This document shows positions 37,425 through 42,508 of a stretch of 59,756 bases of DNA, in pieces. A program made the translations under genes and the position numbers. The stretch lies in the IMG/VR virus record IMGVR_UViG_3300029787_000037, positions 1 through 59,756 of that record; one strand, given 5' to 3'. Every line of letters starts with the position of its first letter. The first letter of the stretch is position 1. This DNA is from a virus (taxonomy: Duplodnaviria; Caudoviricetes). The notes beneath the pieces were generated by a model. That model was given only the letters and a program-made list of their open reading frames with translations. It made no database searches and was not told the DNA's origin.

Positions 37425-40273
37425 TGCCTCGTAAGCTATTTCCTTACGGTAAGTTCATCGGCTTGGACACAGTTACTGGACCTTTCAATAAAAGCGATAG
37501 GTATCTCGGGTGGGCCGAAGGTTGTTACACAGACTTTCGCGGACAGATCCATAAAGGACCTGGGTTTACTGTATCCCCTAAAGGAGGGGACAGCGAAGCA
37601 GACGCTTCCCAACTTCTCTATAATGCTTATGAGAGGGACAAGACTTACAGGGGGAGGTTTCTCCACGATGGTTCTGCCCAGGCAGAGCTTTTTCAGAATA
37701 GGGGATGGTATCAACATTTTTGGAATGTCTTCCATATAGGGGGGCATAATGTCCTCCGCATCTGGTGGGGTGGTCAACATGCGTCAAGTGCCAGCCTTTC
37801 TCGCACAGGAGATGGATCACCCGATAGTACAAACACTGTTCTTAGCGGGGGTATGAACGTCCCTGTCCAAGATTTCAGGTGTCTATGTGTTGAGGATTCT
37901 GGGAGCCAGCGTGTTGGGTTTACCCCACTGCTTTACTACGGGAATTTTCAAGGACAAACCGTGGGCTGGGGAGACGGTACTAACACCGCTACAAACTATG
38001 CTTCGGCTGACCACGGAGATTATGAAAACGTCACAAACCATAGCGATCCTGATAGTCTTGGTGGTTCTACTAGTCGGTTTAAAGCAACTAGTAACGAGAT
38101 CGGTAAGGACCTCGGCTTCGGTTTTTATCCGGTGAACGGCACGGGTTTTGAAACCAAGTTCTTCATGTTCATGCAACAACAGAAGACGTTAAGTTATTTT
38201 CAGAGGCCTGTAGAAGGGATTACCTCTGATACAGACGATGACACACCTACGACCTTTGATAATCAGCATAACCGTTTCTATTCTGCTAATGCCCAACCCA
38301 GTTCTTTGATTGTCACCTTCAGTGGGAACACTGTGACACGTAATGCTCACGGTTTGAGTGATGGGCAACCTGTCTCATTCAGTCATCGAAACTCTAAATA
38401 CGATTGGCAAGGCTCTCCAGGCTCTAACGGGTCTTATTCTAGTTTGTTTGTTTCTGGAGCTACTGATTATATCACGCTGACTGGACATGGGTTAACTGCT
38501 GGGCAAAGAGTAAGTTTTCATTCCCATGACGCAAAGTATGGACTGAGTGGGACAAGCTATCTCCCAACAGGGTTAGCTGAGAACACTAGGTACTACGTCC
38601 TTAGTTCCGGTCTTTCCACAGACACGTTTAAGATAAGTACCACGGACGGGGGATCTGCTGTCACATGGAGCGGTCAAGGAACCCAGTATCAGTCTTCTGA
38701 TATTCAGATTTATTATGACCTTCCTACAGGGGTGGTCAGGGGTAAGACTTATTACGTCATAAACTCTTCTACTAATGATTTCCAGATTAGCGAGACTGTT
38801 GGTGGGAGTGCGATAACGGCAAGTGGTTCAGGCCACGGCGAGTTGTCTATGCAATTATGGTCTGCGTACAATACATGGCCCAACGGAGCTTTTGGTGTGA
38901 CCGTACAAGGCCGTTTAGTGACGGCTGGCTTACACGGCCTAGAAAATGAACTACACATCTCCGGTTTGAATAAGTATTTCGACTGGCGCACGAATAGCAG
39001 CGGCGGTTCAACTTCTCTTGCTACAGATGGTGCTATAATCGATGTAAGCCAACAGTGGACAGCCATTGATCAGATCAAAGGACTTGGAGTTCTTGAAGGG
39101 GACAAGTTGGTTGTCTTTGGCGAGAACGAAACTCTGATTTATATTACAGATACCGATATTAACAACTGGACGATAGCTACTGACTTCCGAATTAAACTAG
39201 GCTTATTCGGTAGAAACACGCTAGCGAATGTGGGACAAGACTTATTCTTCTGTAGTAAATCGGGGATACATTCGATCCGTCGCGCTGTAAGCGGTCTTAC
39301 TTTAGAAACGCAAACCTACACGCGAGAAGTTTCGGACCTCTGGACTAAATTAGTTGCAGATGCCCCGAAAGAGGGCGAGCAAGGTAAGAGTGGTACGTTA
39401 GATCACGGTACTCAAAGTTCTTACGATAACCTCCACACTGTTAATCCAGAGCCTCACGCATGGTGGGACGAGGAGCTAGGTCACTATACGGTGGTGATCC
39501 CTACTGTAGATGCCACTAAATGGGCTAGGCTCATAATGATTTACGAGAAGGGGACAGGAAAAGGAGAGTTTAAAGGATTTACTTTCACACCACCCTTACC
39601 AGGGGATGTAAATGCGGACGATGGTATCGCCCCAGTCGCTACATGCGGCTCTTATTTTGGGATGCAAGGTTCTTCTCCTGAATCTTTCAGGGAGACGGGC
39701 ATCTCTAGTGTGGTTGTTGGCACCACGAAGAAGTTTGTTTCGTCTGGTGTCTCGGGGGTCAATGCAGCCCACCCGTTTTTCTTTCGCACCCCAGTCTTAT
39801 TTCAAGGACAACCAGATACTTATAAATATTACAAACGATTAATTATAAGGTGTCATGTTGTAGACACGTTGTCTTCGGACGGGGTTGCTACAGACGATCT
39901 GTTTCCACAGTACCTCGACTCCACTATGACGCTTCAAGTAAAGATCTATGATGAGCTTGGTAATCTGCGTCATACAGCCGAAGTAACTCCTGACGTTATT
40001 GCCCAGCCTATTGTTCATACCGAAGGTTATTTGAGTGACATTTTAGGACAATACAATCCCCTAGCGGAGACTGGTGATACCAACGATGTTGGGGTAAACG
40101 AATGGTCTAAACATCCTATAGAGATACCTATAGCTATTCGAGCACGGGGAATATCTATTGGTTTTGACAACAAAGCCTACATCTTCAGTAACTCAACCGC
40201 TAATGGTTGGTCCTACCTCAGAGCACACGGCTTTGTCTTCTCCGACTTCGGCTTAATAGTTGATACAAAGTAA
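37424..40273 (+). CDS. Tail nozzle / tail tubular B-like protein with inserted domains
   Basis: 949 aa, beta-rich; GRLV.AG, KLVVF, DLFFCS..GIHSI, KYYKRL patterns. Confidence 0.75.
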   Translation: MPRKLFPYGKFIGLDTVTGPFNKSDRYLGWAEGCYTDFRGQIHKGPGFTVSPKGGDSEADASQLLYNAYERDKTYRGRFLHDGSAQAELFQNRGWYQHFWNVFHIGGHNVLRIWWGGQHASSASLSRTGDGSPDSTNTVLSGGMNVPVQDFRCLCVEDSGSQRVGFTPLLYYGNFQGQTVGWGDGTNTATNYASADHGDYENVTNHSDPDSLGGSTSRFKATSNEIGKDLGFGFYPVNGTGFETKFFMFMQQQKTLSYFQRPVEGITSDTDDDTPTTFDNQHNRFYSANAQPSSLIVTFSGNTVTRNAHGLSDGQPVSFSHRNSKYDWQGSPGSNGSYSSLFVSGATDYITLTGHGLTAGQRVSFHSHDAKYGLSGTSYLPTGLAENTRYYVLSSGLSTDTFKISTTDGGSAVTWSGQGTQYQSSDIQIYYDLPTGVVRGKTYYVINSSTNDFQISETVGGSAITASGSGHGELSMQLWSAYNTWPNGAFGVTVQGRLVTAGLHGLENELHISGLNKYFDWRTNSSGGSTSLATDGAIIDVSQQWTAIDQIKGLGVLEGDKLVVFGENETLIYITDTDINNWTIATDFRIKLGLFGRNTLANVGQDLFFCSKSGIHSIRRAVSGLTLETQTYTREVSDLWTKLVADAPKEGEQGKSGTLDHGTQSSYDNLHTVNPEPHAWWDEELGHYTVVIPTVDATKWARLIMIYEKGTGKGEFKGFTFTPPLPGDVNADDGIAPVATCGSYFGMQGSSPESFRETGISSVVVGTTKKFVSSGVSGVNAAHPFFFRTPVLFQGQPDTYKYYKRLIIRCHVVDTLSSDGVATDDLFPQYLDSTMTLQVKIYDELGNLRHTAEVTPDVIAQPIVHTEGYLSDILGQYNPLAETGDTNDVGVNEWSKHPIEIPIAIRARGISIGFDNKAYIFSNSTANGWSYLRAHGFVFSDFGLIVDTK

Positions 40274-40288
40274 GAAAAACCGTATACT
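40260..40288 (+). promoter_or_regulatory. Sigma70-like promoter for acyltransferase/ejection operon
   Basis: TTGATA-N17-TATACT. Confidence 0.55.
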
Positions 40289-40866: not shown

Positions 40867-42508
40867 TGAATATAACAACCGCCGTATGTGGACGGATAAT
40901 CCTCTTGCTAAAACGTGGGAAGAACTCGGCTTTAATGCTTATGAGGCGCGGCATTGTTGTTTTGATAGTGACGGTGGAGACGACGGTGGTGGCGGTGGGG
41001 ATAGTGATGCGGGTGATGATACCCTTACGGGGGGAGCGGGAGACGATGACCTTGGCGGTGGTTGGGATATGGACCCTAGTTATGGGTCAGATCTTCCTGG
41101 CGGTATGGACATGGGTGGTTCCGGTGGCGGTATCAGCACCGACACTGGTGGGTGGAGTGACGATTTCGGAATTGATTCAAATGATTCAGGGAGCCAGGGC
41201 TGGAACTTAGATTCCAACTATGGACAAGACTTACCTGGGGCAATGACGACGGGCGGTAGTACGAGTGATATTAACACTGCTAGCGGAGATATGTGGGGAG
41301 GTCCCCCAGATTTTGGAACCCCTATAGAGATAACCCCCAGTAAACTGTCTTACCCTCTTGGGCTAACTGAAAAGCAAGCAAAAGCCCTTGGGTTTGGAAG
41401 TGGTTTTGGGCTTAGAGGGGAGGTAGAAAAAGGGCTTAGAAGTAAAACGGACTGGAGCGACTCTAAGATCAATAAGGCTATGTCAACGATTGATGTCAGG
41501 ACTGGCACTGGCCCAATTAGTATGAACCCTGACATCAGTTATAACGCAAATCAGGCCGATAAGGAAGAAGAGGAAGAAAGCTGGTTCGACAACCTTATAG
41601 AGTTTTTCTTCGGCGGGACAACCACTGATAAAGATCAAGCCAATAAAGAGACAACGGCTGGTGTAAAAAGTGCTCAAGATAACATAACACAGACTGTCGA
41701 AGGCCTTCAGGCCGCGATGGACCTCAATAGCGGCCTTGGTAGTACCGAGATTGCAGATGTCTTTGGTCAAAACCCCAATCGGGGTAAAGGCTCTTACGAT
41801 GTCAACTCAGGAACTCTCACCAGTTACGGCATGAGTTCTGGGTTAATTGGTAGTCCCGCCACTAGCGTAGTAGCCGCAACCGTTGGTTTACCGCTAGGGG
41901 TACAAGTTGCTCGCGGACTTCTCGGTGCGGCTAGGGCAGAAACGCCGATTGATGTTATTAGCTCGGCAGCGGGACTTGCCACAATGGTGCCTAATGAAGC
42001 TATAGCTGGAATGGGTGCCTTGGTTGGCGCGGGTACTGGCGCAGTCAAAGGCGTTGATGCTCTTGGGAGTTTTGTGGAAGACGAGTTAGATATAAGCAAT
42101 CCTTTCTCTGGGCTTACCGATACGCTCAATCAGGGCCTAACTAATCTAGGTGGCTCTATGGGTGGCTACGGTACAACGGGTGGGACCACCAGTGGTGGCG
42201 GTGTATCAGGTGGCTTGGGTGGCTCAGACATAAATACAGATGTCGGAGGGGATGACTTTACGGACCCCTCTATAACGGCTCCCCGTTCTACCGATACACA
42301 AACTACCAGAACTTCCACGCCCTTAATGGAAACTACAGTGGCTGAGAACATGCCACTTAGTGCGACGACCTTTGGGAGACGCCCAGGACAAGACATGCCC
42401 TATGGCGTGGTAAGTCCCTTTATGAATGTGACAGACGATCTCAACAGTGTATCCATCGGGTCTACCTATGGATCACCTCGCGCTGGTCGGATGCGTCAGG
42501 CCGCTTAG
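40859..42508 (+). CDS. Putative internal virion/ejection protein, Gly/Asp-rich, with hydrophobic segment
   Basis: Position after nozzle and acyltransferase; HCCF motif, GDDTLTGGAGDDDL, Ala/Gly/Val-rich central region. Confidence 0.65.
   Translation: MFDEYNNRRMWTDNPLAKTWEELGFNAYEARHCCFDSDGGDDGGGGGDSDAGDDTLTGGAGDDDLGGGWDMDPSYGSDLPGGMDMGGSGGGISTDTGGWSDDFGIDSNDSGSQGWNLDSNYGQDLPGAMTTGGSTSDINTASGDMWGGPPDFGTPIEITPSKLSYPLGLTEKQAKALGFGSGFGLRGEVEKGLRSKTDWSDSKINKAMSTIDVRTGTGPISMNPDISYNANQADKEEEEESWFDNLIEFFFGGTTTDKDQANKETTAGVKSAQDNITQTVEGLQAAMDLNSGLGSTEIADVFGQNPNRGKGSYDVNSGTLTSYGMSSGLIGSPATSVVAATVGLPLGVQVARGLLGAARAETPIDVISSAAGLATMVPNEAIAGMGALVGAGTGAVKGVDALGSFVEDELDISNPFSGLTDTLNQGLTNLGGSMGGYGTTGGTTSGGGVSGGLGGSDINTDVGGDDFTDPSITAPRSTDTQTTRTSTPLMETTVAENMPLSATTFGRRPGQDMPYGVVSPFMNVTDDLNSVSIGSTYGSPRAGRMRQAA
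41198..41278 (+). repeat. 81-bp repeat, copy 1 (copy 2 at 43004-43084)
   Basis: 70/81 nt identical by manual alignment. Confidence 0.9.

Follow-up and report, generated by a model that had tools for sequence, protein, structure and literature searches.

A HlyC-family acyltransferase gene coupled to a putative ejection protein with a conserved N-terminal leader in a marine phage

The complete virus record IMGVR_UViG_3300029787_000037, from a phage described as marine (59,756 bp; this whole stretch is hereafter the window), carries within its virion module a gene for a 168-residue acyltransferase of the HlyC/TAAT family, followed by a gene for a 549-residue partner, here termed protein X. The enzyme belongs to this family by sequence and by fold, the coupling of enzyme and partner genes recurs across phages, and the N-terminal leader of X is conserved in partners that have diverged elsewhere. 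The explanation that we favour, to which we give about an even chance, is that the enzyme acylates X in or near its leader, drawing on host acyl carrier protein thioesters (acyl-ACP), and that the lipid would help the ejected protein engage the host envelope. HlyC-type enzymes activate bacterial RTX toxins by fatty acylation, and to our knowledge the only known chemistry of the TAAT family is the fatty acylation of proteins from acyl-ACP. The features of the pair are the following, in nucleotide positions of the window, where ORF stands for open reading frame and pLDDT for the predicted local distance difference test score.

40260..40288, plus strand: sigma-70-like promoter match TTGATA-17-TATACT, which begins in the final codons of the ORF for a 949-residue protein and reaches into the gap ahead of the enzyme gene
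40360..40866, plus strand: TAAT (HlyC-family) acyltransferase, 168 residues, with a Pfam HlyC match and a fold match to ApxC (4whn)
40504-40509, plus strand: His49-Tyr50 of the enzyme
40714-40716, plus strand: Asp119 of the enzyme
40859..42508, plus strand: partner protein X, 549 residues, its start codon 8 nt inside the enzyme ORF
40859..40963, plus strand: N-terminal leader of X, residues 1-35, ending HCCF, conserved among relatives
40955-40960, plus strand: Cys33-Cys34 of X
40964..41263, plus strand: Gly/Asp-rich disordered tract of X, residues 36-135, pLDDT below 50, holding a single nonapeptide-like match (41012-41056)
41060-41149 and 41198-41287, plus strand: two copies in X (residues 68-97 and 114-143) of a 30-residue motif that recurs in a 477-residue protein encoded downstream
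41828..42076, plus strand: hydrophobic Gly/Ala/Val-rich helical region of X, residues 324-406 (19-residue Kyte-Doolittle windows above 1.0)
42296..42505, plus strand: conserved C-terminal segment of X, about residues 480-549, kept in relatives P0006, P0008, L005 and L006, the middle of the protein diverging

The acyltransferase and its active site

A sequence-only reading of this DNA had proposed an HlyC-family gene here and had named a profile search and structure prediction among the ways to check it, and both bear the proposal out. Against Pfam HlyC (PF02794) the 168-residue protein scores 81 bits, the cut-off being 25, with an E-value of 8.9e-23 over profile positions 4-124 of 127, and the family is matched by all 20 enzymes that were aligned; a profile of the enzyme and 19 relatives matches ApxC (4whn) at E 1.1e-22. 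The AlphaFold2 model has a mean pLDDT of 73.7, with values of 84-93 in 10-residue blocks across residues 31-140, and its top three Foldseek matches in the Protein Data Bank are chains of 4whn (E 5.7e-8 to 1.7e-7, template modelling score 0.56-0.60), ordinary GNAT enzymes coming next, from E 7e-4. By sequence and fold, the product of ORF 40360-40866 is a genuine HlyC/TAAT-family protein; it also matches phrog_20210, a family of unknown function. The gene had further been credited with a promoter of its own. The site upstream agrees with the consensus at 10 of 12 positions and ranks first among 13 promoter-like sites in 36000-45000. These 13 are no excess over shuffled sequence (10.0 +/- 3.4 sites), so the promoter is only plausible, at the level of its consensus.

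TAAT catalysis is ascribed to a His/Asp dyad (PMC8510554). The dyad Asp of ApxC, in its WFID motif, is matched in the alignment by Asp119 of the window's enzyme, which is nearly invariant in 20 sequences. In HMMER alignments to ApxC, the catalytic-His column (ApxC His24) holds Tyr50, with His49 one residue earlier, as had been remarked from the sequence when the putative catalytic His was described as offset by one. Among 81 non-redundant homologues, Tyr occupies this column in all six enzymes of the window's clade, the adjacent His49 being invariant. The sister clade has His in 13/13 enzymes, the largest clade in 22/32 (with nine Tyr and one truncated sequence) and another clade in 5/5; a few homologues have Phe, Ala or Arg, and in two clades the Asp is replaced by Asn or Glu. 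In GNAT enzymes, Tyr often serves as the general acid. In addition, the ApxC His24Ala and CdiC H37A mutants are reported to keep residual activity (PMC8510554). On these two grounds, the enzyme is treated as probably active. Enzymes of the window's clade also share an N-terminal extension of about 35 residues (nt 40360-40470) that has no counterpart in other clades and contains an invariant C20-G-C22-G-K24, pLDDT being below 50 at residues 1-21.

The composition of the active site bears directly on a rival explanation, in which the TAAT-fold protein would be a non-catalytic assembly chaperone that binds the leader and brings X to the procapsid or portal, the role assumed for T7 gp13 and P22 gp14. 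Pfam calls T7 gp13 a 'probable scaffold protein' and the P22 record labels gene 14 'head morphogenesis', the canonical His gives way to Tyr in the window's clade and to Phe, Ala or Arg in a few homologues, the Asp is Asn or Glu in two clades, and the leader would do equally well as a pure docking tag. Nevertheless, enzymes 18-34% identical retain the core motifs of TAATs and the Asp, the His is present in most or all enzymes of the three phage clades enumerated above, and the general-acid role of Tyr and the residual activity of the His mutants also speak against this rival. We consider a purely structural role unlikely, and continue with the enzyme as a probable acyltransferase.

Protein X and its leader

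In alignments with its relatives, X is hypervariable, the exception being its N-terminal leader of about 35 residues, the same 35-residue leader ending HCCF that had been recognized from the sequence alone, along with the 8-nt overlap that joins the two ORFs (40360-40866 and 40859-42508). Across six close relatives the overall identity of X is 37-72%, with residues 1-44 nearly invariant and the last 70 or so conserved. The enzymes of the sister clade are only 29-32% identical to that of the window, and their partners, of 418-984 residues, keep the leader in the form MW.D...W...N.YE..HCCF. A 43-position leader profile searched against 1.84 billion protein cluster representatives retrieved 56 at E <= 1e-3, 41 of them at <= 1e-10, and the match starts at residue 1 in 52/56, the remaining ones starting no later than residue 12. 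One match was a Cys-rich false match and was set aside, all further counts being made over the other 55; by this profile search, the leader defines a new protein family of 55 clusters.

Conservation within this family points to a candidate site of acylation. Cys34 is present in 55/55 leader clusters, the Phe that follows it in 54/55 and the Cys that precedes it in 48/55, and when 42 full-length proteins are aligned, no columns other than W11 and C34 are invariant. Among close relatives of X, K18 is the only invariant Lys, but a Lys is found in the corresponding segment of just 39/55 leader clusters, and Lys18 was rejected on that count as a universal acceptor. The sequence-only reading had implied a lysine acceptor, and this part of it is not supported by the comparison of K18 with Cys34 or by the finding that partners in the largest other clade contain between zero and five Lys. 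The contrast between 55/55 and 39/55 favours Cys34, or a new N-terminus created by removal of the leader, as the putative acceptor over a lysine.

The remainder of X had been described as RTX-like, with an Asp/Gly tract carrying a nonapeptide, a Lys-containing middle part and a long Ala/Gly/Val hydrophobic stretch. The last two are as described, Lys being found at residues 162-310 and at 397 and hydrophobicity at 324-406. The composition of the tract also stands (31 Gly and 22 Asp in residues 36-135, with GDDTLTGGAGDDDL at nt 41012-41053), but its nonapeptide does not hold as an RTX feature. The only full match to GGxGxDx[LIVFMYW]x is at residue 58; shuffling the tract produces at least one match in 10.0% of cases, and shuffling the whole protein does so in 5.9%. 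The match is absent from L005, L006 and P0008. With a single nonapeptide at chance level, not conserved, and no Pfam RTX repeat at E <= 1, X was rejected as an RTX protein and the label of RTX-like partner falls with it. The AlphaFold2 model of X (mean pLDDT 49.5) is mostly disorder plus helices, namely a small helical domain at 171-210, long helices at 226-286 and, in the hydrophobic region, helices at 346-359, 363-374 and 382-393. X matched no Pfam family at E <= 1, no PHROG and no NCBIfam family, and a comparison with cultured phages gave no match.

These data also weigh on the related explanation in which X would bind calcium as an RTX-type protein and carry acyl chains on internal lysines in the manner of HlyA. 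The full nonapeptide is accompanied by a partial one, both within residues 52-66, and a Gly-Lys context at K310 (RGKGS) is kept in the three closest relatives, as would suit such a protein. K310 is, however, kept in those three relatives only, no Lys column being invariant in the 42 proteins; both it and the tract are missing in L005, L006 and P0008, which share the leader and the enzyme; the structure prediction shows no beta-roll, the tract lying below a pLDDT of 50; and shuffles account for the nonapeptide at the rates given above. Internal acylation of an RTX protein is highly improbable here, and it is acylation at or near the leader that we retain as the favoured reading. In keeping with the earlier statement that the pair lacks a secretion system, a scan of 38 ORFs against PHROGs, a library not built to find secretion genes, showed none.

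Coupling of enzyme and partner across phages

Searches of viral and of metagenome contigs returned 34 and 78 loci, from which pairing gave 105 enzyme-partner pairs, the window included, and removal of duplicates and of enzyme ORFs cut by contig ends left 81 non-redundant enzymes. The gene order is kept across phages, as a synteny survey suggested by the sequence-only reading was to establish: 71/81 enzymes have a same-strand downstream ORF that overlaps theirs or starts within 5 nt of it. Within virion modules the pair has at least five distinct locations, lying after the nozzle-position gene (the window, L003, L005 and L006), between TerL and portal (a clade with a homologous partner leader), between portal and capsid genes (the largest clade), ahead of TerL and portal (L031 and L037), upstream of a 'DNA ejection protein' PHROG (L027 and L104) and upstream of lysozyme and large proteins (roseophage CRP-235). 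Across these loci, the comparison of gene neighbourhoods indicates that the pair holds up as a two-gene cassette. In one clade, as in L104 (3894-5342), the partner starts MGK, is Lys-rich and contains a segment matching tape-measure-protein PHROGs (E 1.7e-9), and the 'DNA ejection protein' PHROG comes after it.

This distribution is the chief evidence on a further rival, in which the enzyme would be active on another target (the 477-, 235-, 2885- or 949-residue protein of the module, a host envelope protein or a small molecule) and its adjacency to X would reflect co-expression. Such a target would suit pelagiphages that carry the gene outside the virion module (HTVC103P and HTVC104P), the near absence of Lys, the known TAAT acceptor, from partners of the largest clade, and the bacterial homologues, which lie beside unrelated genes (12 loci from the genome collection, none with the phage cassette). 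On the other side, X is the only neighbour kept across differing genomic positions, start-stop overlaps of 1-19 nt are the rule, and the leader is more conserved than the enzyme. We regard a different target as quite unlikely, and X as the better candidate substrate. For the ORFs at 42518, 43961 and 44668, which the sequence-only reading had also named as candidates, nearness to the enzyme gene is all that speaks for lipidation. In five bacterial and metagenome loci (L043, L045, L049, L111 and L124), the His column holds Tyr (Ala in L045) and the enzyme is followed by a conserved protein of about 250-654 residues, the N-terminal region of which is similar in several of these loci.

Partners of the largest clade, 290-434 residues long, have a short leader with the consensus MVRSYLIENRIC[YF]..DGG, and 7/36 coupled partners of this and the L115-type clade have no Lys at all, one of them having no Cys either. 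A motif defined after seeing the data, consisting of Cys-aromatic and then a Gly/Asp/Ser/Glu/Asn-rich stretch within the first 50 residues, occurs in 47/71 partners and in 4/378 other ORFs of at least 150 residues, those four being partners that the pairing had missed. Counted by enzyme clusters with a coupled partner, the motif is present in 5/17 (A, G, B, L035 and L026), or in 6/17 cluster representatives, B and B2 being one cluster, so that it is common and not universal. Alignment with hhalign of window-clade against largest-clade partners recovers only 15 columns, around Cys-aromatic-DGG, at a probability of 2.7%, and that of largest-clade partners against those of L031, L035 and L037 finds about 107 columns in common at 79%.

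The Lys content of partners is strongly depleted in two clades (median 0.66% vs 3.82% and 0.35% vs 5.0%), modestly so in the window's clade (2.97% vs 4.76%) and not in the sister clade with the same leader (4.24% vs 4.94%). Lys depletion was rejected as a general signature, being absent in the sister clade and reversed in one other. Within the largest clade (L007-L024 and L064-L109), all nine Tyr-variant enzymes (QSDE-Y) pair with CYKS in the partner, all 11 QSEA-H enzymes with C[YR]QG, and QSK[AV]-H enzymes with CFDS, once RFDS; this pairing of active-site variants with the residues after the partner Cys may be plain co-inheritance.

Place in the virion module and comparison with known systems

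The genes that surround the pair are the following.

31206-33440: portal
35007-36170: major capsid protein
37424..40273, plus strand: 949-residue protein in the position of a T7 gp12-like tail tube/nozzle, after the capsid gene, a 151-residue ORF and a 239-residue ORF
42518..53325, plus strand: putative internal-virion or ejection-protein genes (477, 235 and 2885 residues), in order and sizes as in a T7-like module

After the capsid gene come proteins of 151, 239 and 949 residues, the enzyme, X, proteins of 477, 235 and 2885 residues and a fibre-like protein of 1898 residues, an arrangement that, by order and size of the genes, is a T7-type virion module. PHROG matches of the 949-residue protein are weak and of tail-fibre type, and the C-terminus of the 2885-residue protein matches phrog_30152, 'virion structural protein', at E 1e-12; NCBIfam gave no match for any of the four proteins scanned, X among them. 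Lying after nozzle-position and GNAT-fold genes and before large internal proteins, X has the place of a first ejection protein, and this position and its composition suggest that it would be an ejection protein carried in the virion.

In the favoured explanation, the TAAT would transfer a fatty acyl chain from host acyl-ACP onto X, in or next to the 35-residue leader, while X is being synthesized and before it is packed into the capsid. X would fill the slot of the first ejection protein, that of T7 gp14 or P22 gp7, and upon ejection its lipid would aid engagement with, or insertion into, the host envelope.

Several observations weigh against this account. TAATs are known as lysine acyltransferases, yet X shares no Lys with the whole leader family, the Lys18 segment having one in 39/55 clusters and two leaders being devoid of any Lys, and we know of no precedent for Cys acylation by the TAAT family. 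The enzymes of the window's own clade have Tyr in the catalytic column of the ApxC alignments, and in siphovirus-like L028 and L030 an Asn replaces the catalytic Asp. The gene is not confined to the cassette described above. In the pelagiphages HTVC103P and HTVC104P it stands among early genes, beside a 108-residue Lys-rich protein, and in a siphovirus-like group including HTVC112P (where it is at 8001-8387 of L002) it is flanked by genes for minor tail protein L and for a J-like tail protein. The Cys-aromatic motif is missing from the majority of enzyme clusters, partners elsewhere starting MGSE, MGEK or MGK, and the conserved adjacency could stem in part from shared descent. Lastly, X has no Pfam match at E <= 1 to T7 gp14 (PF24072) or P22 gp7 (PF25688).

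The place held by the enzyme is occupied in other short-tailed phages by different small genes. The sequence-only reading had stated that podophages often have a GNAT gene here, and the same order is seen in cobaviruses, CRP-810, T7 and P22. In cobaviruses, a GNAT gene (pc40), likened to T7 gp13, adjoins internal virion proteins (PMC6775973). Roseobacter phage CRP-810, the closest cultured relative of the window by capsid protein (43% identity), has gp40 (Pfam Acetyltransf_1) followed by the 621-residue gp39, starting MCGGSPPPPP. In T7, promoter phi13 and gp13 (PF11090) precede gp14, starting MCW, the promoter having the place that the promoter-like site has in the window; among the matches listed, 120/120 gp14 relatives start MCW, the fourth residue varying, which is weak evidence of conservation because all of them are at least 69% identical. 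In P22, gp14 (DUF2824, PF11039) precedes gp7, of which 20 N-terminal residues are annotated as cut by host OpdA to expose KGGKGGAD. The protein following the small gene has an N-terminal Cys motif in T7 (MCW) and CRP-810 (MCGG), and a cleaved leader before a Gly-rich stretch in P22.

The likeness is one of position. The window's enzyme has no sequence similarity to T7 gp13 or P22 gp14 (hhalign probability 1.0% and 0.2%), and Pfam assigns it to HlyC only, and to neither PF11090 nor PF11039. Proteins of the T7 gp13/P22 gp14 type are described as assembly factors, whereas the slot in the window is filled by a member of the TAAT family. Compared with solved structures, T7 gp13 matches two acetyltransferases only, at a non-significant E of 0.4. 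A generalization, which we put forward as doubtful, is that the small acyltransferase-fold genes at this position (the TAAT here, the CRP-810 GNAT, T7 gp13 and P22 gp14) would all be enzymes that lipidate the first ejection protein in its N-terminal region, the acceptor being a conserved Cys or a leader-cleaved N-terminus and not a Lys.

Set beside the RTX operons (HlyC-HlyA, CyaC-CyaA and ApxC), the window shares the family and fold of the enzyme and the placement of its gene directly upstream of one whose large product combines a Gly/Asp-rich tract with a hydrophobic region. It differs in having no repeat array, no conserved Lys, a Tyr in the His column and a setting in a phage virion module, and in that type I secretion genes were not seen in the PHROG scan already mentioned. 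Lipidation in the service of membrane entry is known elsewhere, in the myristoylated penetration proteins of non-enveloped animal viruses and the N-acyl-Cys of bacterial lipoproteins. These would work alike, with a lipid on the flexible N-terminus of a membrane-breaching protein, although the enzymes are unrelated. A functional parallel is CdiC, a TAAT that acylates the non-RTX protein CdiA (class IV), a delivery protein whose lipidation promotes engagement of the target outer membrane (PMC8510554). CdiC acylates a mapped lysine in the receptor-binding domain, whereas the conserved element of X is an N-terminal leader with an invariant Cys.

HlyC-type enzymes 28-33% identical to that of the window are already annotated in the cultured marine phages HTVC103P, HTVC104P, HTVC112P and CRP-235, without a proposed function, and in CRP-235 the gene precedes a Lys-poor protein starting MGGGGGD. 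For phage protein acylation, only bare annotations of the gene were found in print, in a search outside which much subscription literature lies: a pelagiphage preprint names the HlyC-type gene in a figure legend, a word search of the HMO-2011-type phage paper found no mention, and the words 'acyl' and 'acetyltransferase' are absent from a 2022 review of ejection proteins. How the ejection proteins of short-tailed phages enter the outer membrane is not settled, and the role of the T7 gp13/P22 gp14-type gene is unexplained. A TAAT in the gp13 slot, next to a partner whose leader has an invariant Cys, offers a hypothesis that mass spectrometry can test, in T7 and P22 as well. If it is true, TAAT substrates would extend beyond RTX toxins and CdiA, and if Cys34 or a leader-cleaved N-terminus is the acceptor, the chemistry would be new for the family. 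Were the general reading to hold, a lipid anchor not recognised before would be part of the DNA-ejection channel, and the acceptor chemistry of the TAAT family would be enlarged.

Further features of the module and of the window can be added. The 477-, 235- and 2885-residue proteins contain zero cysteines, and X has two, both in the HCCF of its leader. The 30-residue motif GW[DN][LM]D..YG..LP..M..GG... is present in two copies in X and in one copy in the 477-residue protein (43004-43093), the copies in X being 73% and 50% identical to residues 163-192 of the latter (E 1e-9 and 5e-6), and may be a docking element shared by the two proteins. Genes of the window include those for an integrase, DNA polymerase A, primase, helicase and terminase, besides portal and major capsid protein. 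A MoxR/CobS-like ATPase (phrog_249) and two phrog_1576 genes lie on the minus strand at 24841-28530, and one of the latter two has a weak additional match to a CobT-subunit PHROG. The integrase gene is at 7697-8866, also on the minus strand, and its presence suggests that the phage is probably temperate.

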